IMG/VR virus record: IMGVR_UViG_2974518066_000001
Location: 32,001 to 96,000 of that record
Origin: a virus
Lineage: Duplodnaviria > Caudoviricetes
Direction: 5' to 3' (one strand)
DNA length: 64,000 nt
The position numbers and the translations under genes are program-made. Shown piece by piece: positions 8,600-46,500 of the stretch. The number at the start of each line of letters is the position of its first letter. Within the stretch, counting starts at the first letter, position 1. The notes below the pieces were generated by a model. It saw only the letters and a program-made list of their open reading frames with translations. It was not told the origin of the DNA and did not search any database.

Positions 8600-8869
8600 T
8601 TAGTTGGAGGAAACGGCGCCGCCCTGCTGGGCGATGACATCGGCGTTGGCGATCGAGCGCTCGGGGTTCGCAGCGACCAGCGCCTCGGCATATTTCAGGA
8701 CCGAGTCCCGGAACTCCGGGGTGTGGATCATCTGGTAGATGTAGTGACCGGTAAAGTGAGCGGCGGTCGCCTGACCGTCGTCGATCTTGTGGTCTTTGAC
8801 ATCCAGAGCGGCCTGATAGCTGCCGGAATCAAGGTCGATGTCGGTGAGGGTGATGGTGACGATGGCCAT
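8600..8869 (-). CDS. hypothetical protein
   Basis: AGGAG RBS; phage-like codon usage. Confidence 0.6.
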   Translation of the reverse strand: MAIVTITLTDIDLDSGSYQAALDVKDHKIDDGQATAAHFTGHYIYQMIHTPEFRDSVLKYAEALVAANPERSIANADVIAQQGGAVSSN

Positions 8870-9899: not shown

Positions 9900-9916
9900 A
9901 ACGTCAGTCCCTTTCG

Positions 9917-10507
9917 TCAGTGTTTCGTGACGCGCTGCAGGAAGTCTTCCTGAAACGCGGCGATAACCTGCGCCACGTCCTCGCCCGGCTGGGCGGAACG
10001 ATTCAAAATCTTCTGGTGGGGAGGAAGGGCGGCAATGATGTCGTCGATCAAACGTTCAGATTCATGCTCACCCTCGACAGGCTTGTTCCATTCCGCTTCG
10101 ATACCGAAAGGAACGCCGCCCGCTTCTTCAACCGCTTCCACCTCGTTGGGGAAGCGCACATCCGTGATGACAGCCTTCTTGTCGGCGGCACGAACCATCG
10201 TGACACCGACCCAGAAGTCTTCACCCATCAGGTCGCGACCCCACTCTGTCCCGAGCGTCTGCATGGCGTATCGCGGAGATCGCCCTGCAAGGTAGATCGA
10301 CGGCTCCTCCTTGAGGTCGCCTTCGATCATCCGCTCAATGATCTCGGCATCTACGCCCTGATAGGCGAGAAGAAACCGGATCATTCCCTTGAGGGCACCG
10401 GCGAACTTAACGTTCTCGTAGCCCCCATTCAGCAGCACCGATGCTGCTGTATCCTTACCGCTGCCGCGTCGGCCGATCAGGCCGATGAGTGTTGGTGTAG
10501 ATGACAT
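9917..10507 (-). CDS. deoxynucleoside monophosphate kinase
   Basis: GRRGSGKDT, PRYAMQTLGTEWGR, ITDVRFPNE, HESE. Confidence 0.9.
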   Translation of the reverse strand: MSSTPTLIGLIGRRGSGKDTAASVLLNGGYENVKFAGALKGMIRFLLAYQGVDAEIIERMIEGDLKEEPSIYLAGRSPRYAMQTLGTEWGRDLMGEDFWVGVTMVRAADKKAVITDVRFPNEVEAVEEAGGVPFGIEAEWNKPVEGEHESERLIDDIIAALPPHQKILNRSAQPGEDVAQVIAAFQEDFLQRVTKH

Positions 10508-32629: not shown

Positions 32630-33554
32630 AACGACTCCTTGATGTCAGTTTGACTAACTATCAGTTCTTGCATTGTCAAGCGAAAATGGCTATAAGGGTT
32701 ATCGATGGTAACCCAAGAAGCTATGGACGATTTCGACGAGGCTGACTGCCTCTGTCAGGGCAAGGCGATCCCCAAGGAAAAGTGGATCGATTTCATGCAG
32801 CGCGTCTTCGACGAGAAGACCCAGCTCTGGAAGTGGAAGACCGTCCTCCGCTACCACAAGGACTGCCCGATCCATGGCATCCACATCAAGGATGATGAAT
32901 GCCCCGAGGCCTGAGCCCCCTGCAGTGCAATGATATTGAGCGTTCCGGCACCATCCCGCCGGAATGCTCCTTCATGAACCCCACGCTTCACTTTTGTGAC
33001 AAATGGCGTGGGGCTTTGATCGACGAGACGGACCCGGAGTTCGACCGGTGCCGTTGCAACGGAGTAAAGCGTGCCTCAACTGACCCGATCTGATATTGCT
33101 CACATGGTGGTGAGCGATGATACCCCGTTCGAGCGGGATGGTATCTCGAACCTCGACCGCACCGCTTTCGTCTGCGAGGCGTTCCAGCGTCCCTACCTCT
33201 CGATGCAGCAGGACCTTCCCTATGAGGAAGCGCTGCAGTGCCACGACGAGACCTTGGTGCAGGCGTCCATCTATATGGCACACCTCCAGCACCAATACAC
33301 CGCTATCGCGACGGCGGATGGCCACTATGAGGAGGATGTCGGGAATTTTCGGTGTGCTCGGCTCCAGCTCGCAGCGATGAAGCTCCAGTGGCATCTCGAT
33401 CATCTGCGGCGGAATGAGTTCACTCCTTCCTTTCCTTTCGTTCACTGACCCAAAAGCGCCCGGTTAACTACCGGGCGTTTCTTCTGGTTCGTGTTGACTC
33501 CACTTTCTGGTTTCCTTACAGTTCACTTACCGAATCACGAACTGGAGACGAACC

Positions 33555-34133
33555 ATGACCATCAAGCGCGCCAAGACGCTCGACACTGACCAGCTCAATG
33601 GCCTGTTGGCTTACGTAGAAGCGAACTCGCGTATGCCGGAACGCGACCGCCTGTTCGTCCTCCTTTCCTATAAGGCAGGGCTACGCGCCGCTGAGATCAC
33701 GAAGATCGACATCAACGCGATGACTGACGCCGAGGGCCGCATCGCCAAGGTCGTCAACATCTTCTCGAACGTTGGCAAGAAGGGGCGCGAGCGGCAGATT
33801 CCTATGCACCCCGAAATCCGTGACGCGCTCAAGGCTTTCCGGAAAAAATACCCGCACCTTAACTATATCGCGGTGTCGTCCGTGGATGGTCAGCGCATGA
33901 ACGTCAACGCGGTGACGGTCTATATCTGGCGCCTTTACAAGGCGGCAGGATATGAGGATTGCTCCAGTCACTCGGGGCGTCGCACCTTCATCACCAACCT
34001 TGCCCAGCGGGCTAACCAGTTCCACTCCTCGCTTCGTGACGTTCAGCTCCTAGCTGGGCACGCCCGGCTCGACACCACCGAACGCTACATCGCGCCTTCC
34101 TTCGATACTGCTTCGATGGTTGCTTCTTTGTAG
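33555..34133 (+). CDS. small tyrosine recombinase (catalytic domain only)
   Basis: GLRAAE, HSGRR, LAGH, TTERY; upstream TTGACT-17-TACAGT promoter. Confidence 0.9.
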   Translation: MTIKRAKTLDTDQLNGLLAYVEANSRMPERDRLFVLLSYKAGLRAAEITKIDINAMTDAEGRIAKVVNIFSNVGKKGRERQIPMHPEIRDALKAFRKKYPHLNYIAVSSVDGQRMNVNAVTVYIWRLYKAAGYEDCSSHSGRRTFITNLAQRANQFHSSLRDVQLLAGHARLDTTERYIAPSFDTASMVASL

Positions 34134-34209
34134 CCCCATTACGAACCCGTCTTGACCTCCTAAAGGGAACGGAATAGCTCTCCGTCATCACCGAAGAAGG
34201 AGACGAGAA

Positions 34210-34578
34210 GTGGCAAATGATTCTGCACCGAAGAGAGCTAAGCCGAGGGCGGGCGCCAAGACCGCCCCGGCTGCGCCCAGCTTCACCAAGGATCAGGTCG
34301 TGATCGAGGATATGGAAGCGCCCAACCGAGGTGCTGCGGTCCTTGCCGAAGAGATTTGGCCATTCGGTCTTCTCAAGCCCTCGGTCATTGGCGAAAACGG
34401 GAAGCTGACAGGGCCGTCTTTCTTCATTCCGGATGTGGACGTTGGTGAGAAGGCGCTGTCGTCGGCGCGGAAGCGCTACAAGGTCGATAAGATCAAGTTC
34501 ACCTCGCGCAAGATGGTGGGGAAGGGGCCTGACGGGGTTGAGTGCGAAGGCCTTCGCATCTGGCGGATGCCGGATTGA
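34210..34578 (+). CDS. hypothetical protein
   Basis: AAGGAG RBS with GTG start. Confidence 0.6.
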   Translation: MANDSAPKRAKPRAGAKTAPAAPSFTKDQVVIEDMEAPNRGAAVLAEEIWPFGLLKPSVIGENGKLTGPSFFIPDVDVGEKALSSARKRYKVDKIKFTSRKMVGKGPDGVECEGLRIWRMPD

Positions 34579-34609
34579 TAACTTTTTCATGAGCAATGTC
34601 GATTTTAAG

Positions 34610-34638
34610 TTGACATTCGTGAAAAACATCTCTATTAG
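34610..34638 (+). promoter_or_regulatory. sigma70-type promoter of tRNA cluster A
   Basis: TTGACA-17-TATTAG. Confidence 0.65.
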
Positions 34639-34917
34639 CACAAACACCGGCGAGGGGAACCTTGTCGGTGTTTCTGTCTCCACGGTTTTCCGAGGGGCAG
34701 GGAGGGCCGTTGAACGGGCCGAGGAGTAAGCGCCGAGCTTGGGCGCTGAAAGCCAGTCCCGGATACGGTTTCGCAGTTGTAGTCCGAGCATAGCTTCGAG
34801 CTGGTGACAGAAGGATGGGCGCTGGATTAAGCACCCAGCGTTTCCGGAATTACCACGAGAAGAACTAGCCCGCTGCGAAGGTAAGCTGACCTGTCACGCG
34901 GTAAGTCGTGGTTTCAT

Positions 34918-34995
34918 CTGGGTGTAGCGCAGTCCGGTTAGCGTGTGCGGTTCGGAGCCGTGAGGTCGTAGGTTCAAATCCTACCATCCAGACCA
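34918..34995 (+). tRNA. tRNA-Pro(CGG)
   Basis: cloverleaf; loop TTCGGAG; CCA. Confidence 0.9.
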
Positions 34996-35003
34996 TTTTC
35001 AGT

Positions 35004-35081
35004 GCCAGTGTAGCTCAGCCCGGTAGAGCAGGAGGCCCATACCCTCTTTGTCGGTGGTTCAAATCCACCCGTCTGGCACCA
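35004..35081 (+). tRNA. tRNA-Met/Ile2(CAT), atypical
   Basis: loop CCCATAC; bulged acceptor stem; CCA. Confidence 0.75.
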
Positions 35082-35088
35082 GTTCTTA

Positions 35089-35227
35089 GAGGTAACGCCG
35101 GTTCGAGCCCGGCTCGCCCGCCCAGCTGGTGATCGTCTAGTTTCGTAGGACGCCTCGCAAGGGAAACGTCGGTTCAAATCCGGCCCGCCCGTAGTTTAGG
35201 GTGGTCGTCTAGTGGTTAGGACGCCCT
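35089..35227 (+). ncRNA. two tandem circularly permuted tRNA-like modules (YrlA/Y-RNA-like)
   Basis: each unit: variable loop, T arm, loop-closed acceptor, D arm; closing stems GAGG/CCTC and AGGG/CCCT. Confidence 0.65.
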
Positions 35228-35269
35228 GTAATTCGGTCCAGGTATCCGTCAAATCGGATGGACCAGCGG

Positions 35270-35344
35270 TGGGGATTAGCTCAGCGGTAGAGCAGCCGTT
35301 TTACATGCGGCCGGTCGGCGGTTCGATCCCGTCATCCCTAACCA
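35270..35344 (+). tRNA. tRNA-Val(TAC)
   Basis: cloverleaf; CCA. Confidence 0.9.
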
Positions 35345-35346
35345 AC

Positions 35347-35421
35347 GCCTCGTTAGCTCAGCGGTAGAGCGCTGCTATGACATGGCAGATGACGGTGGTT
35401 CAAACCCATCACGAGGCACCA
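35347..35421 (+). tRNA. tRNA-Val(GAC)
   Basis: cloverleaf; CCA. Confidence 0.9.
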
Positions 35422-35693
35422 TTTTGAGACCCGAGGTAAAGGGATGTGAGGCGTGCAAGAGCCACGCGCTTTAGAAGCCCTGATCCTTGCGACGGTAGGC
35501 TCACGTCGCACCAGTTAGACCAAATCCGTGGCGGATGCTGCGGCCACCCGCGAGAGTGCGGTAACACCGGAAGGCCAGAGGGCGGTGGCGGTTAGTTATT
35601 CGAGGTTGGGCCTGTCGGACGCGGCAGGTAGGAGATCGCATAGCCCGGCTGTTAACCGGCGGTCCTATACGGACGTGTGAAGCTCCACCCAGC

Positions 35694-35768
35694 GGGGATG
35701 TAGCTCAGAGGTAGAGCACCCGTTTTGCAAGCGGAAGCGCGTCGGTTCGACTCCGACCATCTCCACCA
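35694..35768 (+). tRNA. tRNA-Ala(TGC)
   Basis: G3:U70 pair; cloverleaf; CCA. Confidence 0.92.
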
Positions 35769-35902
35769 GTTTAGGACGGCGAGTGGCCCGGTATTGGTCC
35801 GGGCATCAAATGGACTGCGGAGCGGGGAACTATCGCCTATCCCGCCCGGTCATGCGAGGACAAAATGGAGCGTGGCGCTCCTACTCGCAACGCCACACCT
35901 GT

Positions 35903-35984
35903 TTGGTAGTGACAGAGTGGTAATGTGCCCGGCTGTTAACCGGTGACCCGAAAGGCGGTGGTTCGATCCCACCCTACCGAACCA
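35903..35984 (+). tRNA. tRNA-Asn(GTT) with long variable arm
   Basis: loop CTGTTAA; extra arm; CCA. Confidence 0.8.
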
Positions 35985-35985
35985 T

Positions 35986-36062
35986 AGCGGTGTAGCTCAG
36001 CCCGGTAGAGCAACCGACCGATAATCGGTGTGTCGCAGGTTCAAATCCTGCCATCGCTACCA
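35986..36062 (+). tRNA. tRNA-Ile(GAT)
   Basis: loop CCGATAA; CCA. Confidence 0.9.
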
Positions 36063-36084
36063 GTTTCTCGAAAGGACCCGACCC

Positions 36085-36591
36085 TTGAAGAAGATGTTCG
36101 TGATGGCGGCTGCGGTAGCCTCAATGCTCGTTGCTGCCTGCGATCGACAGCCTTCTGCTGCCGAGCGCTGCATGGAGGCCAAGAACCCGCAGGAATGCTA
36201 TCAGGTGGCAAACGCTGGTGGCGACATCAACGATTACCTGATCGGTGGCCTCGGCGGTTACATGCTGGCGAAGGTCATGAGCGGCGGGCGGCAGCAGACC
36301 GTCATCGTGCAGAACCCGAATTATCATGGGCCGCGCCGATACGTCCCCAGCTACGCTTCCAGCCGTCAGCGCGTCCTCAACGGACAGGTCAAGACGGTCA
36401 GCACCACGACCACGAAGCGCGGCCTGTTCGGGTCGAAGACCACCACCACGACCAAGACTTTCGGCTCCAAGCCTGCCAGCTCGTGGGGCTCTTCCTACTC
36501 GAAGCCATCCAAGTCTTGGGGCTCGTCGTCCCGGTCCTTCTCTTCTTCGCGGTCGTCCTTCTCGTCGCGATCTTCGTTCCGGCGCCGCTGA
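36085..36591 (+). CDS. lipoprotein with Ser/Arg/Thr-rich tail, inside the tRNA array
   Basis: AAAGGA RBS; TTG start; lipobox LVAAC. Confidence 0.75.
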   Translation: MKKMFVMAAAVASMLVAACDRQPSAAERCMEAKNPQECYQVANAGGDINDYLIGGLGGYMLAKVMSGGRQQTVIVQNPNYHGPRRYVPSYASSRQRVLNGQVKTVSTTTTKRGLFGSKTTTTTKTFGSKPASSWGSSYSKPSKSWGSSSRSFSSSRSSFSSRSSFRRR

Positions 36592-36626
36592 CAATCTAGG
36601 GTTGGTGAATTATTTCACTAACCCTA

Positions 36627-36655
36627 TTGACAGTTAAAGTAACTTCCGTTACACT
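36627..36655 (+). promoter_or_regulatory. promoter of tRNA cluster B
   Basis: TTGACA-17-TACACT with GTTAAAGTAAC palindrome in the spacer. Confidence 0.8.
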
Positions 36656-36709
36656 CTCCGCATCATGAGCCAATCGGCTCTCATCAGTTTCAGAGAAAAG
36701 CTCACCACC

Positions 36710-36769
36710 ATGTTCACCCGGTTTGGAAAACGAGATCGCCGAGAAGGCGAACGAGGTTTTAGCCTCTAA
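36710..36769 (+). CDS. putative attenuator leader peptide of cluster B, MFTRFGKRDRREGERGFSL (in-frame upstream ATG at 36665)
   Basis: 15 of 18 non-Met codons are F/R/G/K/D/E, the cluster B amino acids. Confidence 0.75.
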   Translation: MFTRFGKRDRREGERGFSL

Positions 36770-36806
36770 CCGGTAGTGTGCCTTTTGCTGCCGGTGCTGT
36801 TTTAGC

Positions 36807-36882
36807 GGATCGGTAGCTCAGTAGGTAGAGCAGGGGATTCTTACTCCCAAGGTGGACGGTTCAAGCCCGTCTCGATCCTCCA
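36807..36882 (+). tRNA. tRNA-Lys(CTT)
   Basis: cloverleaf; CCA. Confidence 0.9.
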
Positions 36883-36902
36883 AGACAGCATCGGAAGTTT
36901 TA

Positions 36903-36939
36903 GACACCCTACCGGACACCCGGTGGGGTGTTTTCGTTT
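36903..36939 (+). terminator. intrinsic terminator (attenuator) after the first tRNA of cluster B
   Basis: GACACCCTACCGG/CCGGTGGGGTGTT stem plus TTTCGTTT. Confidence 0.8.
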
Positions 36940-36954
36940 GCGCTTCTCGGCTTC

Positions 36955-37030
36955 GGGCCGGTAGCTCAGTAGGCAGAGCAGGGGGCTTTTAACCTCAAGG
37001 TGGTCGGTTCAAGCCCGACCCGGCTCACCA
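36955..37030 (+). tRNA. tRNA-Lys(TTT)
   Basis: cloverleaf; CCA. Confidence 0.9.
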
Positions 37031-37038
37031 GTTTCAAT

Positions 37039-37113
37039 GCAGGCGTCGTTCAGACGGTAGGACACCTCCTTGCCATGGAGGAGACGCGGGTTCGAGACCC
37101 GCCGCCCGCTCCA
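37039..37113 (+). tRNA. tRNA-Gly(GCC)
   Basis: cloverleaf; U73; CCA. Confidence 0.9.
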
Positions 37114-37125
37114 TCATTCACCTTT

Positions 37126-37202
37126 GGTTCTGTAGCTTAGCTGGTGAAAGCGCCGGGTTGTCAACTCGGAGATCGCGGGTTCAAGTCCCGTCAGAACCGC
37201 CA
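37126..37202 (+). tRNA. tRNA-Asp(GTC)
   Basis: cloverleaf; G73; CCA. Confidence 0.92.
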
Positions 37203-37203
37203 T

Positions 37204-37278
37204 GGGGCGTTCGTCTAGCGGACAGGACGCTGGCTTCTCAAGCCGGAAGCAGGGGTTCGATTCCCCTACGCCTCACCA
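37204..37278 (+). tRNA. tRNA-Glu(CTC)
   Basis: cloverleaf; CCA. Confidence 0.92.
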
Positions 37279-37286
37279 GTTCACAT

Positions 37287-37362
37287 AGCGCCATCGTCTA
37301 GCGAGCAGGACACGTTGGCTTTCACCCTTCGGACGCGGGTTTGAATCCCGTTGGCGCTGCCA
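37287..37362 (+). tRNA. tRNA-Glu(TTC), atypical anticodon stem
   Basis: loop CTTTCAC; stem CGTTGG/CCTTCG with two U.U mismatches; CCA. Confidence 0.7.
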
Positions 37363-37388
37363 GTGAACAGTTATGAAGAGAGTTTCGA

Positions 37389-37463
37389 GCGACATTAGCT
37401 CAGCGGTAGAGCGGCGGTTTTCCAGTCCGCGCGTCAGGAGTTCGATCCTCCTATGTCGCTCCA
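37389..37463 (+). tRNA. tRNA-Gly(TCC)
   Basis: cloverleaf; CCA. Confidence 0.88.
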
Positions 37464-37472
37464 AATTCTCTT

Positions 37473-37548
37473 GGCCCGGAAGCACAACTGGACGTGCGCT
37501 CCGCTACGAACGGAAAGGTTGTGGGTTCGAGTCCCACGCGGGCCTCCA
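37473..37548 (+). tRNA. tRNA-Arg(ACG)
   Basis: loop CTACGAA; CCA. Confidence 0.88.
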
Positions 37549-37553
37549 TTTTC

Positions 37554-37628
37554 GGTGAGGTAGCTCAGAGGTAGAGCGCCGGTTTGAAAAGCCGGGCGTC
37601 GGTGGTTCGATCCCGCCTCTCACCACCA
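37554..37628 (+). tRNA. tRNA-Phe(GAA)
   Basis: cloverleaf; CCA. Confidence 0.9.
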
Positions 37629-37635
37629 GAGGTTT

Positions 37636-37992
37636 ATGCAAGACGAAATCGAACGAAAGCGACGAAACAGCGCGGCCCACTATGCGAGAAATCGGGAGGC
37701 CGTAAAGGCTAAGTCGAGGGCAGCAAAGCCTCTACGCCGAGCTGCCTGTCACCAGTTCGTCCTAGAGTATTTGCTTAATCACCCTTGTGTCGATTGCGGC
37801 GAGGACGATCCGATCGTTTTGGAGTTCGACCATCAACGAGACAAGAGCTTCGCGATTTCTGATGGAGCCCGAGCCGGGTATAGCCTCAAAAAGCTAGAGG
37901 CAGAGATCGCAAAGTGTGAGGTTCGCTGTGCCAACTGCCACAGACGGAAAACCTACCGGGAGCGCGGATTGGAAAATCGCACCATCCATTAA
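37636..37992 (+). CDS. HNH endonuclease in the tRNA array
   Basis: CVDCGEDDPIVLEFDH...KCEVRCANCHRRKT. Confidence 0.88.
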   Translation: MQDEIERKRRNSAAHYARNREAVKAKSRAAKPLRRAACHQFVLEYLLNHPCVDCGEDDPIVLEFDHQRDKSFAISDGARAGYSLKKLEAEIAKCEVRCANCHRRKTYRERGLENRTIH

Positions 37993-38000
37993 AATAGTTA

Positions 38001-38029
38001 TTGACACTAACCTATAGTTCGGTTATCAT
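38001..38029 (+). promoter_or_regulatory. promoter of tRNA cluster C; predicted start site at or next to the leader ATG (leaderless)
   Basis: TTGACA-17-TATCAT; ATG 8 nt after the -10 box. Confidence 0.8.
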
Positions 38030-38036
38030 TCGCACC

Positions 38037-38105
38037 ATGTTCACACAGACCACCTTGCTTACGCAGTGCCATTATTGGCAACTGCTATCGAGTTCATCCC
38101 TCTAA
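38037..38105 (+). CDS. putative attenuator leader peptide of cluster C, MFTQTTLLTQCHYWQLLSSSSL
   Basis: 20 of 21 non-Met codons are T/Q/L/C/H/Y/W/S, the cluster C amino acids. Confidence 0.8.
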   Translation: MFTQTTLLTQCHYWQLLSSSSL

Positions 38106-38139
38106 GGGAGTGGTTCTGACGCGCCACTCCCCGACCTAC

Positions 38140-38228
38140 GGAGGGTGGCTGCAAGAGGTGCGTAACCGGTCTCGAAAACCGGGCTGGGGTTAGGAGCCCT
38201 ACGGGTTCGATCCCTGCACCCTCCGCCA
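38140..38228 (+). tRNA. tRNA-Ser(CGA)
   Basis: long variable arm; G73; CCA. Confidence 0.85.
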
Positions 38229-38235
38229 AGTTTTT

Positions 38236-38276
38236 AAGCGTCTGCGACCACTCGGTCTCAGGCGCTTTTTCGTTTT
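38236..38276 (+). terminator. intrinsic terminator (attenuator) after the first tRNA of cluster C
   Basis: AAGCGTCTG-C-GACC/GGTC-T-CAGGCGCTT stem plus TTTCGTTTT. Confidence 0.8.
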
Positions 38277-38292
38277 GGAGATTTTGATTTTC

Positions 38293-38376
38293 GGGAGGGC
38301 TGGGCACGAGTGAGCCCACACGCCTGTAAAGCGGACGCGAAAGCTGTGAGGGTGCAAATTCCCTCACCTCCCACCA
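38293..38376 (+). tRNA. tRNA-Tyr(GTA)
   Basis: loop CTGTAAA; variable arm; atypical T loop; CCA. Confidence 0.8.
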
Positions 38377-38381
38377 TTATT

Positions 38382-38466
38382 GGCCCGCTGGTGAAATGTA
38401 GACGCACTCGCCTCAGAAGCGAGCGACCGAGAGGTCATCCCGGTTCAAATCCGGGGCGGGCCACCA
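38382..38466 (+). tRNA. tRNA-Leu(CAG)
   Basis: class II cloverleaf; CCA. Confidence 0.9.
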
Positions 38467-38471
38467 TGATC

Positions 38472-38556
38472 GGGGATGTGGTGAAATAGGTAAACGCAGC
38501 GGGTCGAGAGCCCGCCGCCTGATGGCTTGAGGGTTCAAGTCCCTCCATCCCCACCA
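38472..38556 (+). tRNA. tRNA-Leu(GAG)
   Basis: class II cloverleaf; loop TCGAGAG; CCA. Confidence 0.88.
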
Positions 38557-38587
38557 TGATTATCACGCATCTCAGATGCGCCAGAAT

Positions 38588-38661
38588 GCCCGGTTAGCTC
38601 AATGGTAGAGCTACGCCGTCGTAACGCGAGGACGAGGGTTCGATTCCCTCACCGGGCTCCA
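38588..38661 (+). tRNA. tRNA-Thr(CGT)
   Basis: loop GTCGTAA; weak anticodon stem; CCA. Confidence 0.8.
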
Positions 38662-38675
38662 TGCAGGTCTCAGGT

Positions 38676-38751
38676 GTGACCGAGGCAGAGTTGGATCATG
38701 TGCCGGGTCGTGATCCCGGATACGGCGGGTTCGAGCCCCGCCGGTCACCCC
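38676..38751 (+). tRNA. tRNA-His(GTG)
   Basis: loop TCGTGAT; C73; ends CCT rather than CCA. Confidence 0.8.
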
Positions 38752-38769
38752 TAAGCCCTGCAAGGCTAT

Positions 38770-38843
38770 TTCCCGTTCGTTCAATGGTAGGACGCCCGGC
38801 TCTGAACCGGGAGATCGAGGTTCGAGTCCTTGACGGGGAACCA
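38770..38843 (+). tRNA. tRNA-Gln(CTG)
   Basis: cloverleaf; CCA. Confidence 0.9.
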
Positions 38844-38858
38844 GATTTATCCGCACAC

Positions 38859-38945
38859 GGAGAGTTGCCAGAGCGGTAATGGGCTGGCTTGCTAAGCCAA
38901 GACAACCTCACGGTTGCGAGGGTTCGATCCCCTCACTCTCCTCCA
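38859..38945 (+). tRNA. tRNA-Ser(GCT)
   Basis: class II cloverleaf; CCA. Confidence 0.88.
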
Positions 38946-38953
38946 TCATCACT

Positions 38954-39027
38954 GCCGCCTTGGCCGAGTGGCAAGGCTCCGGATTGCAACCCCGGCATCT
39001 CCCGTTCGATCCGGGAAGGCGGCTCCA
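38954..39027 (+). tRNA. tRNA-Cys(GCA)
   Basis: U73; CCA. Confidence 0.9.
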
Positions 39028-39031
39028 TCAT

Positions 39032-39107
39032 ATCTCCAAAGCATTAAGGGGCGATGCACCGGTCTCCAAAACCGGCAAGCTGGGTTCGAGTCCTAGTGGA
39101 GGTGCCA
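39032..39107 (+). tRNA. tRNA-Trp(CCA)
   Basis: loop CTCCAAA; G73; CCA. Confidence 0.88.
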
Positions 39108-39272
39108 TATTGCAAAGTCGGGCGTGATGCCCTACATCCACTCCCGGCTCTCGTCCCTCTTCTCGTGGAGGTTCCGAAAGCCGGTCATGTTAGAAGCGGA
39201 ACTCGATCTCGATCGTGAGCCACTTCGTGATGAACCGGAGGATGAGACGGCACATCTCACTTCCTCCAATTC

Positions 39273-39302
39273 GCCGCCGGGTTAATTCCCGGCGGCTTTT
39301 TT
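39273..39302 (+). terminator. intrinsic terminator ending the tRNA array
   Basis: GCCGCCGGG/CCCGGCGGC plus T6. Confidence 0.85.
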
Positions 39303-39447
39303 GTGCTAATTCGCCTAGAATGATTCGGCAAGGGCGTATCTTCTGGTCATTGACTTTTTCGGCATTTTGCTCTATGATCCGGCGTTCTGCATCCGTCTTC
39401 GAGGGTGCGTCTCCTCCACATCGTTATCACCCTCACGAGGACCCATC

Positions 39448-39876
39448 ATGTCCAAGAGCAATTTCCTTGAGAACGCGATTCTGGCCCTGCTGTTCAACGG
39501 CACCGGCATCGCCAACCTCGCCGACAACTCGGGCGTCGCCCCGCTGACCACCCTCTATGTCTCGCTGCACACCAGCGATCCGGGCGAAGCAGGCACGCAG
39601 GCCACCAACGAGATCGCCTACACCAACTATGCCCGCGTCGCCGTCGCCCGCACTGCGGCAGGCTGGCAGGTGACCGGTAATGCCGTGTCCCCGGCGCAGA
39701 ACATCGACTTCCCGACCGGCACCGGCGGCACCGGCACTGCCACCCACTTCGGCATCGGCGTGGCGCAGAACGGCGCTGGCACGCTCCTCTACTCGGGCAC
39801 CATCACTCCGAACATCGTTTGCGGCAACGGCATCACGCCGCGCCTGAGCACCACGGGCACCATCACCGAGGACTGA
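39448..39876 (+). CDS. virion structural / fibre-associated protein
   Basis: MSKSNFLENAILALLFNG...YVSLHTSDPGE...YARVAV, a common phage family. Confidence 0.75.
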   Translation: MSKSNFLENAILALLFNGTGIANLADNSGVAPLTTLYVSLHTSDPGEAGTQATNEIAYTNYARVAVARTAAGWQVTGNAVSPAQNIDFPTGTGGTGTATHFGIGVAQNGAGTLLYSGTITPNIVCGNGITPRLSTTGTITED

Positions 39877-39902
39877 TGTGCCTCTCTAACGGGAGGTAAT
39901 CC

Positions 39903-41534
39903 GTGGCAACAATCTTTGCCAAAGACGATCTGATTGTCGATGCCACCGCCAGCCTGAATGGGCGGGTGGCGGAGATCGGCGGATCATGGGTCTCTGTTTC
40001 TGGCACCAGCTCGGGGCTTGGCGGCACGAGCGGGACCATGGGCGTGTATCTGAATCAGGGCGCTCGCTCGACCTCTACCACTTCGCCCGGTGTAATCGCT
40101 TACTTGTCGGACCCGGCGCCTGCAGATGACATTGTTCTGTCTTGGAAGTCCGGCTACTTCGGCACTTCCGGCGCTCCGGGTGTGGCCTTCCGTGTCAATG
40201 GCACGTCAGGCTACCTACTGCAGCTCGCGCAGACTTTCATCGTCCTCTACAAGACTGTTGCCGGTTCGCGGAAGACGGTCATCCAGCAGACGGGATTGTC
40301 GCCTCTCAGTCCCACCAACGCTTTTCACGACTACGAATTGCATGTGAAGGGTGGCCGTCTCAGCCTTTATAAAGACGGCGCCCTTTTCTGGGAATATGAG
40401 GACGCAGACGCGCCACTTCTGACGGCGGGTAACGTCGGCCTCTTCATTCGCGGCGATGGTCGCACAACAAATTTCCTAGCCTACGTCCCGGACGGCGAAA
40501 TTGTCGTCGGCTCCCCTGAATCGGCGGGCTCCTCGGAGGCCGCTTTCGCCGGTGAGAAGTTCGTAGCGGGGTCGATCAGCTCAGCAGGCACGACGCCGAC
40601 CGCCTACATGCAGTCGGCGACCTACCGCGTCGGCGAGATGCGAAACGCTAACGGCGAGTCAAACGCTCGCTTCGACGCTATCGCTCTCATCACTGCCCAG
40701 ATGTATGCGCTGGCGCAGGCTCCTGAGCCAGACTTCCATAGCGTCGGCTTCTCCGCCACGACCGGTGCCATGGATGGCGCAGGGACCACGGTAGCTGCGT
40801 TCGTTGGTCGGGCTACCATGTCGGGCGATATGGCTGGTGCTGGCGTTACCAGTGATGCTATGGTCTCTCGCGCTTTCGGACAGGGCGAGGGCGAGTTCTC
40901 GATCGGCAGCGGCGGCACCTCGGCGGCTGCGTTCACCGCTCAGCGGATCGTCAGCGCTCGGATGCAGTCGGAGCCAAAATACGACGGCGACTCCTTCAAG
41001 TTTGTCGGCGGGCGCACGATCGAGGCTTCGTTCCTTTCGGAAGGCTCCAGCACCGCAGGCTTCACCGGTTACGTCGCAGTGCGGATCGAGGCCGCTGGCT
41101 CCTCGACTGCCTCGTTCGCTCCCACTGATGTCACGATCCCGGCGACCTTCTCGGCTGTCGGTTCGTCAGTCGGCGCTCTCAAGGAGCTGGAGTTCGCGGT
41201 AACGCGCTTCGGGCAGGTAGGCGCCCTCGGCTTCGGTCGCATGGTGGGCGTATCTGTCACCGGCGGCGCCATGAAGTCGCAGGGTGCTTCGATCATGTCG
41301 GGCTGGGCAGGGGCGACGATCTTCTCTAGCGAGATGGGGGCGGAAGGCTCCATGCGTGGTCGCATGGTCTCGCTCTCGTTCAGCAGCAACATCCCCACAC
41401 CGGACGATCGCGTCTCCTTCCTCCCGGCCGAGGATCGAACCGCTGTCCTTGAGGTCGAAGATCGGGAAGTGCTTCTCCCGGTTGAAGACCGCGAAATCCT
41501 CCTCCCGGCCGAAGATCGGATTGCATACCTATGA
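39903..41534 (+). CDS. putative virion fibre/adhesin (lectin-like N-terminus, G/S/A-rich repeats)
   Basis: beta-sandwich-like N-terminus; repeated GxSxAxF; C-terminal EDR repeats. Confidence 0.6.
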   Translation: MATIFAKDDLIVDATASLNGRVAEIGGSWVSVSGTSSGLGGTSGTMGVYLNQGARSTSTTSPGVIAYLSDPAPADDIVLSWKSGYFGTSGAPGVAFRVNGTSGYLLQLAQTFIVLYKTVAGSRKTVIQQTGLSPLSPTNAFHDYELHVKGGRLSLYKDGALFWEYEDADAPLLTAGNVGLFIRGDGRTTNFLAYVPDGEIVVGSPESAGSSEAAFAGEKFVAGSISSAGTTPTAYMQSATYRVGEMRNANGESNARFDAIALITAQMYALAQAPEPDFHSVGFSATTGAMDGAGTTVAAFVGRATMSGDMAGAGVTSDAMVSRAFGQGEGEFSIGSGGTSAAAFTAQRIVSARMQSEPKYDGDSFKFVGGRTIEASFLSEGSSTAGFTGYVAVRIEAAGSSTASFAPTDVTIPATFSAVGSSVGALKELEFAVTRFGQVGALGFGRMVGVSVTGGAMKSQGASIMSGWAGATIFSSEMGAEGSMRGRMVSLSFSSNIPTPDDRVSFLPAEDRTAVLEVEDREVLLPVEDREILLPAEDRIAYL

Positions 41535-41815
41535 GCATGAAATGGAAGACCCCGAAGGACCCGGATGAAATCCTCGACTATGTGGTCGATTATTCCAGTC
41601 GCATGGTTCCCGGCGACCGCATCGCCTCGATCATGGAGGTGTCTGTCGTCGATGGCTCCGTCCATATCGACAGCTATTCCTTCACCGACAATCGCCTGAC
41701 GGTCTGGCTGTCTGGCGGCACGGAAGGGGAGGCATGTCCGATCCTGTTTCGTGTCACCACGGAAGGCGGGCGCTTGCTCGACCAGACTGTCACCGTGAAG
41801 ATCAAAACGAAATAA
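41531..41815 (+). CDS. phage fibre-tail adaptor-like protein
   Basis: KDPDEILDYVVDY...VWLSGG...TTEGGR. Confidence 0.7.
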   Translation: MSMKWKTPKDPDEILDYVVDYSSRMVPGDRIASIMEVSVVDGSVHIDSYSFTDNRLTVWLSGGTEGEACPILFRVTTEGGRLLDQTVTVKIKTK

Positions 41816-42174
41816 TTTTGGCTGCGATGACAGAATCAGTTGACATATGAATCATTCGGGTCTAGTGATCCTGTCATCGAGACGGCGATGCGGAGGGGCC
41901 TCCTCCACGGAGACGCTGAGGCACTGGACTACAAAGCCGGTGGCGTTTCTACCGTTCGAGACTGAGCCCGCGCTTACAGCGATGGGTCTATCGAGGCTTC
42001 GGCCGCTGAGCCAGCGTAGCAGATCAGCGGTCACCAACACTCGCAATGCGAGACCTCTTGCATAAGCGCCCGGCCTGAATCGTCGGTAGCGGGATGTGGC
42101 TCAACACTAGGGCGGCGAAGCTGGGAGTAGTGCCCCGGCGAGCTTCGAGGTTTCACATTGCCAGTGATGGCTAA

Positions 42175-42303
42175 GATCAGGTCGGTTGCCCGAGTGGTTT
42201 AAGGGTGATCGATGCAAGACTGGATGGGATCGGAGGCAACGGCTCCGCACCACATGACGGTAAACCGTCCAGCCGAGGGTTCGACTCCCTCACCGGTCTG
42301 ATC
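42175..42303 (+). ncRNA. tRNA-like RNA with an insertion in place of a normal anticodon arm
   Basis: 12-bp closing stem; D loop GAGTGGTTTAA; T arm GAGGG-TTCGACT-CCCTC; no CCA. Confidence 0.6.
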
Positions 42304-42386
42304 GATTACGAGGTTGGCCCGCCGTGCCGTTATCGTCCGCGCTTCTTAGCGCGGGGCGCCGGGCCACATTTTTAGAAAGGAAGTTG

Positions 42387-42869
42387 TTGGATACGGAACT
42401 TGCCTACCTTGCTGGGTTTCTTGACGGAGAAGGCACGATAGGTTTGTTCAAGACTTCTGGTGCCAATGCGTTCAAGGTGCCGTGTATTTCGGTGTCCAGC
42501 ACGGATAGGTATCTTCTGGATGCTTACGTCCATCGTTTCGGTGGACACATCCAGACCAAGGCGAGCAAACGGCCTGAAAATCATCGGCAAGCCTATGAAT
42601 ATCGCTTGCGTGGTCCTAAGGCTATTTGCGCGATTTCGGAGTTGTTTCCGTATTTACGCCACCACGTCAAGCGCGCCAGAGCGACGATGATCTTGGAGCA
42701 CTTCACCAAGATCACTAAGCGCAACGGGAAATACACCGAAGCTGAGCGCGCTATAAAGATAAGGTGGGAAGAGTTATTTCTCAGCTTGTCATCGCGAGGT
42801 GGCGATGCTTGGACAAGGGATTACCAGCAGTTCGCTGTTGGTGATGATGATCGTAATTCGGACGATTGA
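42387..42869 (+). mobile_element. LAGLIDADG homing endonuclease running into the tmRNA gene
   Basis: LAYLAGFLDGEG; AAGGAAG RBS with TTG start; lower GC. Confidence 0.85.
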
Positions 42870-43194
42870 GGACGCGCACGGACCGGGGAGCGTTACCCCG
42901 CACCTCCACCATTGCTGCTGAGCGCGAGGCTCAGAACTTCGGAGACACGGCGGTATCCAACCCGCAGGGCCTCAGTAGCATTGATGGGGGTGAAGTAGGA
43001 TCGACGTGCAAGGCTGAGAGAAGGACGCGATCGGTTTGGGTGCTGCCCCTTATGCGGTGCCAAGGCTTTAACTGCCAACGACAATGATGTTGTCACTGCG
43101 GAAGTGCGCCTCGCGGCGTAACCCGAGAAATTCCTGAGCCTTCAACAAGCTCAGGTGCGGACTGGCCCACCGAGCAACAGGACGGGCCACATTT
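42830..43194 (+). ncRNA. ssrA: circularly permuted two-piece tmRNA; tag ANDNDVVTAEVRLAA (43074-43121); outer ends approximate
   Basis: acceptor 3' end CACCTCCACCA (ends 42911) precedes 5' end GGGGGTGAAGTAGGATCGAC (42986); G3:U70; hairpin intervening segment. Confidence 0.92.
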
Positions 43195-43424
43195 GAGGCA
43201 GGGGCCGATCACAACCTCCCCTGACCGCTCGCTGTGTCCCCGCGCAGCCGTGATCGGTCTCTTCCTCAACTGTGACAAATTTAGGTGAGGAGCCGTGGCT
43301 GCAATCGCGGTGTTTTGCAGGACCGACCGACACAACTGGACAGTCCTCACCTGATCATCTCTGCAGGGTTTCCCGTTCCCTGCATGACAGCCGGGCGACC
43401 CATGTCTCCCCCGAAAGCCCGGCG

Positions 43425-43466
43425 AGGCCCGCGACCAAAATCATCGGTCGCGGGCCTTTCTGTTTG
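43425..43466 (+). terminator. intrinsic terminator
   Basis: AGGCCCGCGACC/GGTCGCGGGCCT plus TTCTGTTT. Confidence 0.7.
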
Positions 43467-43571
43467 TCGGATGGTTATTAAAACTTGACTTTCAACGGTT
43501 CGAGAGTTAGTCAGGCGGACCAAATCTGAATCGGCGACCCAAGCCGAAATCCCTCATTCTCTAAGGTATCC

Positions 43572-46500
43572 ATGGCAACATACACGAAAGCCCTCGCCGA
43601 GCTGTTCGACGGGGTAGGGGGCACGGTCGTCCTCCACGACGCCGATGGCGCGACTTACGCCGAGACCGATCTGGCGGAGCTGGCGAGCATCGCCGACGAG
43701 CTGATTGCCGGTGACCTCGACCCGTGGGTTGATCTGGTGACCGCCGAAGGCACTGCTATCGGCTTGTTCGTTCCCGGCGACGCCACCGCCGTGAGCCCGC
43801 CGCCCAGCGCGATCGTGGATGGTGGCATGGTCTACCTGTTCAATGAACCGGTCGAAGGTCAGAAGCCGGGCGTGAACCTTTGCCCGCTCGACCTCATCGA
43901 AGGCGCCGTGACATATGATCCGACCCGCTTGGAGCTGTCCACCGACGCCTCCAAGCGTTCGATCACTCTGGGGCAGGGCCGCCGAAGTGATGAAAAGCAG
44001 GGCAAGTGGAAGGAGATCACTTCCACCTTCGGCGCGTTCACCGATTTCCTGCGCCAGCACAATGAAGGCCAGAAGGATGGTCCATGCTTCCTGCAAGGCG
44101 CCACGGCTGGTGGCACCCGTAAGGCGGCGGCGATTATCGGCAACGATGTGCTCGGCGTCGATCTCGATTCCGGTGCGCCCCTGAGTGACGTGATCGACAC
44201 AATCGTCCGCCATCGGCTGGAGGCTGTGATCTACACGACCCACAGCCATCTCAAGGACACCAGCGTCATCAAGCGCGACCATTATTTCAAGTGGTCTGGC
44301 GAGCTTGTCGCAACGACCGAAGGCGTCGCGGATTACCTGCAGCAGGTGAAGGGCGTCCTCCCCCACATCGTCGAGGACGTGGAAATCGTCAACGAGAGCC
44401 ACCATACCGAAGATGGTATCGTGATCCTCGTGAAGCACCGGCCGATGCCAAAATTCCGCGCCGTGTTTCCGCTCAAGGAGACTTTCGTGTTCTCCAAGCG
44501 CGGCGGCACCCAGCAGGACGCCATCGCGGAGTGGAAGGAACGATACGCTGGCTTCTGCACCGAGCTGGGTCTGTTCTTCGACGAGAAGTGCGTCGATCCG
44601 GCGCGCCTGTTCTATTTCCCTCGGCACGCCAAGGGCGACACCAGCTTTGGCTCGTGGCACGTCGTGGGCGGCGCTCTGGACCTCGACGACTACGACCGTG
44701 TGAAGATGAAGCGCGGCCGGGATGGTAAGCGCCGGGCCGTGTCGAGCAATGCCTTCACGGCGGCTGGCGGCGGCGAGGAAGAGGACGATCGGGAGCGCTA
44801 CGTCACCGACGATGGCTTCCACCTGCGTCCGTGGGCGGCGAAGTTCGCCAACCGCTTCGAGGTCGAGATGATGCTGGAGACGGTGGTCGGCGACGACTTC
44901 ATGCGAGACCCGCGCACCGGCGGTAAGCCCGGCACGCACGTCGAGTGCCCCTTCGAGGCGGAGCACACCAGCTTCGGCGGCGGCGGCACCTATGTCGTCA
45001 ACGCCTCCGACAATATGGATGACGGCTTCGACGGCGGCTTCACCTTCCACTGTGTTCACAACGCCTGTTCAGGTCGTGACCGGCTCGACTACCTGTGCGA
45101 GTTGATCAATCAGGGTGTGATCTCGTCGAAGGACCTGCAGAACAAGGAGTTCATGGTCGCGCTGGAAGGCGACGACGATGATGAAGATGAAGTCGAGGCG
45201 GAAGCCGACGATCGCCGGGTGAATGCCGCAGCGGCCAAGGCCGGGCTGTCCGGGACGTTCGCAGGTGTTCGTGGCCAGTCCAAGAAGCCTTCGATGGAGG
45301 GCATGACCGAGGACGAAATTCTCCTCTGGGAGATGAACGATCGCTATGCGGTGATCCGCACCAGCGGCGGCGTCAAGATTCTTGTCGAGCCCCGCACCGC
45401 TGATGGCGATGTCTCATTCGAGAGCCAGAACGACGTTGCCCTGTTCGAGAAGAACAACGTGCTGTGGATGGGCGACGGCAAGAAGGGCAAGCAGAAGATC
45501 GAGGTCTTCAAGCTGTGGCTCGAATGGGAGCACCGCCGCACCTACGTCGATGTCGTCTTCGAGCCGGGCCGGGAGACTGAGGAGCATACCTACAATCTCT
45601 TCCGTGGCTGGCCCTACAGCCCGAAGGAGACGTTCTGGGAGCAGGTCACCGATAACAAGGACAAGCCCGTGCCCGGCGACTGGTCCATGCTTCGTGGTCA
45701 CATCTACGAGAACATCTGCGAGTCCAACGACGAAATGTTCGGGTGGTTGATGACGTGGCTGGCCCACCTGTTCCAGCACCCCGACCAAAAGCCGGGCTCC
45801 ACCGTCGTCGTCACCGGCAAGAAGGGCACCGGCAAGTCCACGCTCTTCGACTATGTGAACAAGGCTCTGGGGCGCTGCGGGATCACTGTGTCGCAGCGTA
45901 AGCAGATCGTCGGCCAGTTCAATGGTCACCTTGCTACGACGCTCCTGATGGTCTGCGAAGAAGCCTTCTGGGCAGCGGACCCGCAGGCGGAAGGCGTGCT
46001 CAAGGACATGATCACCAACAAGTCGATGTTGATCGAAAAGAAGGGCTACGACCCGATCCAGTCGAACAACTACACCCGGCTTGCCCTGATCTCGAACAAC
46101 GAGTGGGTCGTTCCCGCCTCCCTCAAAGACGAGCGTCGCTTCTTTGTTCTGCGATGCTCCGATGCACGTCAGGGTGACCTTGCTTTCTTCGGCGCCCTCC
46201 GTGAACAGATGGAGAAGCTGGGAGGTATCGAGGCCATGATGTATGACCTCATGACTTGGGAGCCGACGAACGGTCACTTCTCCTCGCTCTACACGCCGCC
46301 GGTGACGCAGTATCTGCAGCAGCAGCAGGTCGAATCTCTTTCGGGTGTCCAGAAGTTCATGCTTGAACTGGTCAAATCGGGTATCTACGAGACCCATGAC
46401 GACAAGGTAGAGGCGATCGAACTCAACACCGACAAGGAGACCATGGTCACGGCGGTGGATATGCGAGCGGCGATCGAAGATTACACCCGCTTCCGGTTTG

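Follow-up and report, generated by a model that had tools for sequence, protein, structure and literature searches.

How does a bacteriophage that carries a large set of transfer RNA (tRNA) genes decide when to express them? The prevailing view of bacterial tRNA genes is that growth rate and guanosine tetraphosphate (ppGpp) act on them at the promoter, without attenuation; to our knowledge, the control of phage tRNA genes is essentially unknown. The question is raised by a 64,000-nucleotide (nt) stretch of DNA from a virus of the Caudoviricetes (positions 32,001 to 96,000 of IMG/VR record IMGVR_UViG_2974518066_000001, here called the window), in which ARAGORN and Rfam identify three clusters, A, B, and C, with 24 to 25 tRNAs, together with a permuted transfer-messenger RNA (tmRNA). 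The amino acid sets of the three clusters have zero overlap and jointly comprise all 20 amino acids. To judge from their sequences, clusters B and C are probably each preceded by a ribosome-mediated transcription attenuator whose output is tRNA, built around a short leader open reading frame (ORF) and an intrinsic terminator, and the phage probably makes the tRNAs downstream of the terminator only when ribosomes read the leader codons slowly. The source virus record is 130138 base pairs (bp) long and is almost certainly Sphingobium phage Lacusarx (KY629563), whose published tRNA region at 66918-71107 corresponds to window positions 34918-39107 (Lacusarx genome paper).

Composition of the leader peptides

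An earlier note on this DNA had described a single layout for operons B and C, in which a promoter is followed by a short ORF, the first tRNA, an intrinsic terminator, and the other tRNAs, and this layout is present in both (Table 1). The residue counts that it gave are exact, with 15 of 18 residues (83%) of leader B drawn from K/G/D/E/R/F and 20 of 21 residues (95%) of leader C drawn from S/Y/L/T/H/Q/C/W, and the leaders do hold every amino acid of their own cluster, six and eight, respectively. Against the amino acid frequencies of the phage, the binomial probabilities of these compositions are 8e-5 for leader B and 8e-10 for leader C. Among the 1,215 ATG-initiated ORFs of 15 to 44 codons in the six frames of the 130-kb genome, the two leaders are top-ranked for their own sets, and both sit directly upstream of the matching cluster. 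When the 20 amino acids were partitioned 6/6/8 at random 100,000 times, no partition fit the leaders equally well, an outcome shared by all 10 phages tested; in these phages, all leaders contain each amino acid of their own set. The own-set fraction is 0.78 and 0.86 in the reading frames of the leaders versus 0.28 to 0.45 in the other five frames.

Pattern and protein-anchored searches identified about ten distinct related phages, comprising the Erythrobacter phages vB_EliS-L02 (L02) and XM05 and contigs from IMG/VR and metagenomes; a search with a single primase protein gave no related loci, and alignment was needed. Leaders B and C are both kept in all of these relatives. The correspondence between ORF and tRNA content, which the earlier note had proposed as a check in homologous phages, is kept even where the order of the peptide is shuffled: the ten C leaders range from 22 to 27 codons and differ in the order of Cys, His, Trp, Tyr, and Gln, and they remain 81 to 95% in-set with no set member missing. 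Since order is shuffled and composition retained, selection appears to act on composition and not on peptide sequence. The frame of leader C is open in 10 homologs, while the other frames mostly hold stops, and its ATG lies 7 nt past the -10 element in every homolog and also in leader III of phage phiCbK; from this spacing, the leader C messenger RNA (mRNA) is probably leaderless, as is, probably, phiCbK leader III, by the same reading of its sequence. Leader B is open in 11 homologs at 18 to 21 codons, with stops again in most of the other frames and length differences in multiples of three; it has a conserved core and variable ends, and it differs among phages by whole codons.

Codon usage in the leaders fits a decoding sensor in two respects. 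The codons of C leaders are more varied and rarer than those of phage genes (P = 0.0002 and 0.006, respectively, in the window, where leader C has 19 distinct codons in 21 positions); classical attenuators likewise use rare regulatory codons. In addition, AAG, which is read only by the first tRNA of operon B, occurs in no B leader of the 7 phages compared at the codon level. The corresponding codon for the first tRNA of operon C, TCG, is found among C leaders in this window only.

Covariation of leader and cluster, for which the earlier note had proposed a test, extends to the more distant CbK-group phages of Caulobacter and Brevundimonas, which sort their tRNAs differently and in which the leader amino acids follow. 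In phage CcrSC, a 39-codon ORF before a Pro/Thr/Lys/Leu/His/Ala/Ser/Trp cluster is 87% in-set, a value equaled by 1 of 20,000 random sets, and the ORF before a Tyr/Val/Ile/Gln/Asn/Arg/Phe cluster has 15 consecutive in-set residues. The leaders of CcrColossus, Domovoi, and phiCbK follow tRNA sorting in the same way. A small Glu/Asp cluster of the Caulobacter phages also has a short ORF and a terminator, the ORF containing only 2 to 3 Glu or Asp codons. Of 49 matching records, 47 are Caulobacter and Brevundimonas phages that carry the element, and the other two are Rhizobium phages matching only the Tyr-like tRNA described below. The C-terminal tails of CbK-group leaders resemble those of the A leaders in the Lacusarx group, which suggests common descent with rewritten sensor codons.

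In phiCbK the parts have been annotated singly, as gp083 (hypothetical protein), predicted terminators, and tRNAs. Its leaders contain His, Ala, Thr, Asn, and Arg, for which the annotation lists no tRNAs. With ARAGORN at 85% thresholds, genes for His, Ala, Asn, and Arg and one undetermined tRNA appear precisely where the annotated clusters have gaps (Table 1). The match between these genes and the leader residues means that leader composition predicted genes that annotation had missed.

Predicted switches in the leaders

In the mechanism that we infer, along with its switching direction, its physiological trigger, and the translation of its ORFs, each operon would be transcribed from a strong sigma-70-type promoter, and the first product would be a short ORF that is translated and consists almost entirely of codons for the amino acids of the downstream tRNAs. 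The segment behind its stop codon would pair with the 5' arm of the terminator across the folded first tRNA, and this antiterminator would form before the 3' arm is synthesized. A ribosome that finishes the leader, and is at or near the stop codon, would cover the post-stop segment, so that the terminator forms and transcription yields no more than the leader and the first tRNA. A ribosome stalled earlier, at a codon for which charged tRNA is scarce, would leave the segment free to form the antiterminator, and the remaining 8 or 9 tRNAs would be transcribed. The outcome would be a negative feedback that fits phage tRNA output to decoding demand, with one amino acid group per operon.

For operon B, positions 36770-36780 can pair with the terminator 5' arm at 36904-36915 through 7 bp, one mismatch, and 3 to 4 bp. 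The predicted energy of this duplex in the window is -15.3 kcal/mol, compared with -5.0 +/- 2.0 kcal/mol for shuffled sequences, and the pairing is found in 11 of 11 homologs at -9 to -18 kcal/mol, a range that shuffles reach in at most 2.3% of trials. Among the homologs the 5' strand begins 0 to 4 nt past the stop codon, and the post-stop element, 5' arm, and 3' arm change in step, reading T/A/T in the window and in relatives G002 and L035 and C/G/C elsewhere. The flanks of tRNA-Lys form a second helix of 12 to 13 bp, here designated P4, in which RNAalifold detects 8 pairs with compensatory changes; native P4 duplexes average -17.2 kcal/mol versus -10.1 kcal/mol for non-native pairings. With the antiterminator and P4 both placed around tRNA-Lys, the nascent RNA can adopt a single long, interrupted hairpin that is capped by the tRNA. 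Terminator B shows compensatory changes among homologs and folds at -25.2 kcal/mol (z = -6.0), and promoter B is kept upstream of every homologous leader B.

The effect of ribosome position was modeled with transcripts cut before the terminator 3' arm, in which the acceptor stem was enforced and the ribosome footprint was placed by position. In these constrained folds, the B 5' arm is 73 to 91% paired to the post-stop element unless the ribosome is on the last 2 to 3 codons or the stop codon. With terminator B at -23 kcal/mol and antiterminator B at -15 kcal/mol, the terminator is the more stable structure and the choice must therefore be kinetic, as it is in classical attenuators. Equilibrium folding of complete leaders, in which the terminator always wins, is mute on a kinetic switch and was replaced by the cut-transcript folds. 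Two smaller hairpins lie in the same leader (Table 1). The one in the 5' untranslated region (UTR) has a counterpart of different sequence at the same place in relatives and may serve, for example, to stabilize the 5' end, and the local hairpin behind the stop codon may act as a pause or transient trap.

Attenuator C may work like attenuator B, although the models support this with less confidence. The ORF hairpin, post-stop hairpin, and terminator of C all covary, and the C alignment contains 16 pairs with compensatory changes, a number reached by 0 of 500 shuffles. In the alignment of the post-stop hairpin, 97% of cells are paired and 3 pairs are compensatory; terminator C folds at -20.8 kcal/mol (z = -5.95) and contributes 6 such pairs. 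The 7-nt core of the post-stop loop repeats the terminator 3' arm, and 96.8% of cells are complementary between this core and the 5' arm; the core is invariant, so that covariation cannot speak for or against loop-arm pairing. The loop-arm duplex is predicted at -16 to -21 kcal/mol in the relatives. A scan of ribosome positions for C gave no consistent pattern across homologs, and the best-predicted partner of the 5' arm in the window, which lies at the 5' end of the ORF, is a window-specific segment and is not trusted.

In both operons, the second tRNA starts 15 nt past the terminator, and a promoter scan lists no site in between. Given strong terminators and a 15-nt gap free of promoter-like sites, the downstream tRNAs should be expressible only by read-through. 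A consensus terminator scan skipped both attenuator terminators, probably since their stems can extend into the U-run; folding confirms both. An Rfam cmscan of 33000-45000 with E values up to 1 returned only tRNA, tmRNA, and chance matches, and in the two leader regions (36660-36806 and 38030-38139) the same scan gave no match to a leader family (Trp, His, Leu, Thr, Phe, and others), to the T-box, or to any other family.

Relatives of the window phage provide a third, independent instance. In these phages, cluster A is preceded by a promoter, an ORF of 28 to 31 codons that is 63 to 79% P/M/V/A/N/I, and a terminator directly before tRNA-Pro, and the modeled folds have the textbook pattern of a classical 1:2 / 2:3 / 3:4 attenuator. 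Folding of the full transcript with ViennaRNA predicts a long ORF-internal 1:2 helix and the terminator. When the transcript is cut before the 3' arm, ORF codons ~13 to 30 pair downstream with a region that includes nearly the whole terminator 5' arm; this 2:3 antiterminator comprises 31 to 40 predicted pairs, counting a nested stop-codon hairpin, and is predicted to be free with the ribosome A site at codons 1 to 10 and masked at codons ~12 to 26. Phage XM05 has a different leader A terminator and compensating changes in the ORF.

Two side observations concern these leaders. Where the relatives have leader A, the window has a promoter (TTGACA at 34611) and then ~280 nt of noncoding G+C-rich RNA that runs straight into tRNA-Pro (34611-34917); this RNA has no Rfam match, and its 3' end resembles the RNA that precedes the cluster A attenuator module in relative G002. 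In relatives, a conserved motif, AGGATTTT followed by GAGT, is common to the 5' UTRs of leaders A and B, about 14 to 16 nt before the ATG (for example, at L001 3725-3745 and L002 3961-3981, in L019/L020, and in others). The motif lies too far upstream for a usual Shine-Dalgarno sequence and may be a translation enhancer.

Table 1. Positions of the tRNA clusters and of the known and proposed elements of operons B and C in the window, with the additional phiCbK genes
Feature	Position	Strand	Description
Cluster A	34918-36062		Pro, Met(CAU), Val x2, Ala, Asn, Ile; ARAGORN, Rfam
Cluster B	36807-37628	+	Lys x2, Gly x2, Asp, Glu x2, Arg, Phe; ARAGORN, Rfam
Promoter B	36627-36655	+	-35 TTGACA 36627-36632, 17-nt spacer, -10 TACACT 36650-36655; 10/12 consensus matches
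5' UTR hairpin, leader B mRNA	36667-36680	+	5 bp, 4-nt loop
Leader ORF B	36710-36769	+	19 codons; stop TAA 36767-36769
Post-stop element B, 5' strand of proposed antiterminator	36770-36780	+	First base directly after stop codon; near copy of terminator 3' arm
Local post-stop hairpin B	about 36769-36795	+	3' arm 36788-36794, then U-rich tail; flagged terminator-like
Flank helix P4, 5' strand	36791-36803	+	Overlaps 3' arm of local hairpin; covaries with 36883-36894
tRNA-Lys(CUU), first tRNA of operon B	36807-36882	+	57.8 bits; between leader and terminator, looped within proposed antiterminator helix
Flank helix P4, 3' strand	36883-36894	+	Extends acceptor stem of tRNA-Lys
Terminator B, intrinsic	36904-36939	+	5' arm 36904-36915, loop, 3' arm 36920-36931, U-run to 36939
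tRNAs of operon B proposed as regulated (n = 8)	36955-37628	+	Lys(UUU), Gly(GCC), Asp, Glu(CUC), Glu(UUC), Gly(UCC), Arg(ACG), Phe
Cluster C	38140-39107	+	Ser x2, Leu x2, Thr, His, Gln, Cys, Trp, and noncanonical Tyr(GUA)
Promoter C	38001-38029	+	-35 TTGACA 38001-38006, 17-nt spacer, -10 TATCAT 38024-38029; 11/12 consensus matches
Leader ORF C	38037-38105	+	22 codons
Hairpin within ORF C	38064-38086	+	Made of Cys/His/Tyr/Trp/Gln codons; 4 pairs with compensatory changes
Post-stop hairpin C	38106-38131	+	8-bp stem, 10-nt loop; loop core 38116-38122 complementary to terminator 5' arm
tRNA-Ser(CGA), first tRNA of operon C	38140-38228	+	Upstream of terminator C
Terminator C, intrinsic	38237-38277	+	Stem 38237-38266, U-run to 38277
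tRNA-Tyr(GUA)	38293-38376	+	Noncanonical class II, unusual D and T loops
tRNAs of operon C proposed as regulated (n = 9)	38293-39107	+	Tyr(GUA), Leu x2, Thr, His, Gln, Ser(GCU), Cys, Trp
Low-scoring phiCbK tRNA genes	7621-7693, 8269-8419, 8608-8694, 9898-10081 of JX100813		Undetermined, His, Ala, Ser, Asn, Arg

Strength of the attenuation reading and its rivals

The core of the earlier note, that a translated multi-amino-acid leader couples ribosome speed to terminator read-through, is supported by the computational tests that were run, because the match between leader and cluster is kept in homologs, leader A of the relatives has its predicted attenuator fold, leaders and clusters covary in the CbK group, and operon B has a conserved predicted antiterminator pairing. 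The parts themselves, their conservation, the match in composition and its covariation with tRNA content, and the alternative pairings, as predicted by folding, are what the sequences show.

Several findings weigh against attenuation. At equilibrium the terminators always win, and so the switch has to be kinetic. Operon B is without a conserved 1:2 element, and an untranslated leader B would thus be predicted to allow read-through, unlike the trp attenuator; the sole 1:2-like competitor is the short post-stop hairpin at ~36770-36794, which the stronger P4 would displace. Leader B in the window also lacks a clear Shine-Dalgarno sequence, and its core is almost invariant in nucleotides among homologs, which makes selection on the RNA rather than on the codons possible for B alone. 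The loop-arm duplex of window C, at -11.8 kcal/mol, is no better than shuffles, and its core is without covariation support. A leader before cluster A was searched for in the genome of the window phage itself and none was found. At the codon level, the description of the leaders as codon matched had to be given up, as codons readable by the operon's own anticodons are no more frequent than under random synonymous choice (P = 0.34 to 0.99). Leader C does carry a codon for each of its ten anticodons, as had been noted; such coverage is expected from synonymous randomization at fixed amino acids (P = 0.57). Leader B has no AAG or GAG, leaving 2 of 9 anticodons (Lys CUU and Glu CUC) with no strictly cognate codon, and codons such as ACC, ACA, TCA, TCC, CTA, TTG, CAA, and CGG have no strictly cognate tRNA in the window operons. 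Because the codon match is only that of synonymous randomization, the sensor would work by amino acid family, and it would then also report host isoacceptors.

The codon-level result would equally suit translated ORFs that report general translation capacity, or that shield the nascent RNA from Rho, and do not respond to specific downstream tRNAs; the modeled attenuator B, for its part, needs only a ribosome at the stop codon. Such a function needs no particular composition, yet the leaders hold all of the amino acids of their own sets and few others, and the sets are non-overlapping and jointly cover the 20 amino acids, and we consider this explanation unlikely. The structural findings raise a different alternative, in which the leaders are noncoding RNA structures (pre-tRNA processing stems, RNase III sites, or pause or stability elements) and the composition of the ORFs is a by-product. 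Covarying structure is indeed present in the ORF C hairpin, the post-stop hairpins, and P4, the nucleotides of the leader B core hardly change, and the antiterminator and P4 helix around the first tRNA may recall the processing stalks of ribosomal RNA precursors. Structure alone, however, predicts nothing about which amino acids a frame spells, whereas in-set enrichment is restricted to the ORF frame, the frames are kept open, their ATG holds a constant spacing from the -10 element, their lengths change in multiples of three, three unrelated leaders match their own tRNA sets, and the leaders of the Caulobacter phages follow another partition. A noncoding origin is on these grounds very unlikely.

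It is also conceivable that each short ORF specifies a functional micropeptide with its own role and is merely cotranscribed with the tRNAs, as the conservation of the leader B core as a peptide in 11 phages would allow. The C leaders, however, freely shuffle the order of their residues with composition kept, the link to tRNA content would be left without explanation, and phiCbK gp083 is annotated merely as a hypothetical protein; the probability of this explanation is very small indeed. Ribosome-mediated attenuation with tRNA as its output is thus the reading that we adopt for operons B and C, at the strength given at the outset.

Neighboring features and relation to known systems

Several features of the window lie beside the two operons. 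The stretch at 38293-38376 was missed by ARAGORN and Rfam, although its homolog in phage L02 is called by ARAGORN, and it is assigned to Tyr because its anticodon loop contains GUA and because of its homology to the L02 tRNA-Tyr. It has 80 to 87% identity to unannotated stretches in Caulobacter, Brevundimonas, and Rhizobium phages, the papers on which state that tRNA-Tyr is lacking. In cluster A, a tRNA with anticodon CAU (Met or Ile2) at 35005-35077 is supported by Rfam (41 bits) and by relaxed ARAGORN; no Met tRNA was reported in the Lacusarx paper. The stretches between the cluster A tRNAs at 35080-35260, 35430-35690, and 35770-35900 contain tRNA-like fragments and other apparently structured noncoding DNA, and no Rfam family matched them.

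Between clusters A and B, an ORF at 36030-36599 has a lipoprotein-like N terminus and a long Ser/Thr/Arg-rich tail, and between operons B and C, an ORF of 118 amino acids at 37636-37992 has Cys-x2-Cys and His motifs that appear HNH-like by eye; a Pfam search of these two ORFs and of the ORF at 39903-41534 gave no matches. Near-identical phages from three public studies have 93 nt in place of window 37550-37990, and the region of the 118-residue ORF therefore has the appearance of a mobile insertion. Public DNA contigs of near-identical phages have the same leaders without change, which makes these contigs uninformative, and in public RNA runs less than one-tenth of the words were present, probably from conserved parts of tRNAs, with no bearing on transcription either way. 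The permuted tmRNA, of alphaproteobacterial type, lies at 42324-43212 (Rfam, 90.7 bits) with a LAGLIDADG-domain ORF at its 5' border (42324-42869).

A broader hypothesis, which we hold only tentatively and think doubtful as a whole, is that CbK-like phages of Alphaproteobacteria run a complete self-regulating tRNA supply, in which the 20 amino acids are distributed over a few leader-gated operons, tRNAs are made only on loss of host tRNAs, and a surveillance and repair module is added. The multivalent leader peptide would let the ribosome measure the usable tRNA pool, the loss of host tRNAs would result, for example, from anticodon nucleases or phage-induced host shut-off, and the first tRNA of the Lacusarx-group operons would have a second role within the antiterminator, that of a structural spacer and timer. 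RtcB, tadA, and the L02 enzymes would, with the attenuators, form a tRNA surveillance and repair module against tRNA-targeting defenses. The RtcB ligase and tadA have been reported for Lacusarx, and RtcB, a CCA-adding enzyme, and peptidyl-tRNA hydrolase have been reported for L02 (published genome papers). The link to anticodon-nuclease defenses, drawn from this gene context in the genome papers, is a guess.

Neither full-text searches of the literature nor the genome papers yielded an account of tRNA genes controlled by a leader peptide; the nearest published cases are the TrcR-controlled tRNA array of Anabaena and the leaderless poly-Cys attenuators of mycobacteria, both compared below. If attenuation is the correct reading, a classical textbook mechanism serves a new kind of output, namely, the molecules that do the decoding, through sensors far more multivalent than any known to us, each leader covering 6 to 8 amino acids and each phage all 20. 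It would give a direct and testable answer to why phage tRNA arrays have the grouping that they have, and a handle on whether phage tRNAs counter tRNA-cleaving defenses. The same design occurs in phiCbK, which infects Caulobacter, a tractable model, and leader composition predicts tRNA genes that annotation tools miss, namely, those for His, Ala, Asn, and Arg in phiCbK and the noncanonical Tyr.

Among known systems, the closest in design are the multivalent leaders of enterobacteria, such as those of ilvGMEDA (Ile/Val/Leu) and thr (Thr/Ile), and more broadly trpL, hisL, leuL, and pheL. On the proposed reading, the shared features are a translated leader rich in regulatory codons, an intrinsic terminator, an exclusive antiterminator set by ribosome position, the sensing of several amino acids by one leader, and the use of rare codons. 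The enterobacterial leaders regulate biosynthetic enzymes, whereas the regulated genes here would be tRNAs, 6 to 8 amino acids would be sensed per leader with three leaders covering all 20, and in B and C a whole tRNA, proposed to be made constitutively, would lie inside the antiterminator loop; the present leaders are also phage borne and match no Rfam leader family. In the described leader-peptide attenuators that we know of, the regulated genes encode amino acid biosynthesis enzymes or synthetases, and we know of none with tRNA as its output. The pheM leader of Escherichia coli pheST is similar in that leader-peptide attenuation controls a translation component serving the sensed amino acid; it differs in that one amino acid is sensed and in that the output is a protein, phenylalanyl-tRNA synthetase, and not a tRNA.

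T-box riboswitches, the classic tRNA-sensing control of translation-related genes, bind uncharged tRNA directly and without a ribosome. On the proposed reading, they share with the phage leaders a cis-acting leader that reads tRNA status through a choice between terminator and antiterminator, and they differ from them in structure, the phage leaders being without a specifier loop, T-box motif, or Rfam T-box match. In mycobacteria, leaderless poly-Cys short ORFs are cysteine-responsive attenuators (bioRxiv 10.1101/834739), with a leaderless sensor ORF at the 5' end of the transcript, as is proposed for leader C and phiCbK leader III; those ORFs sense a single amino acid, control protein-coding operons, and are not terminator based in the same way. 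The long tRNA array of Anabaena (the trn operon) is induced under translational stress through the repressor TrcR (PMC8421152, PMC10272220), a DNA-binding protein at the promoter, with no cis leader peptide or terminator and no specificity for amino acid groups. That array resembles the phage operons, as proposed here, in being a supernumerary, horizontally mobile set of tRNAs whose low expression gives way to induction under impaired translation.

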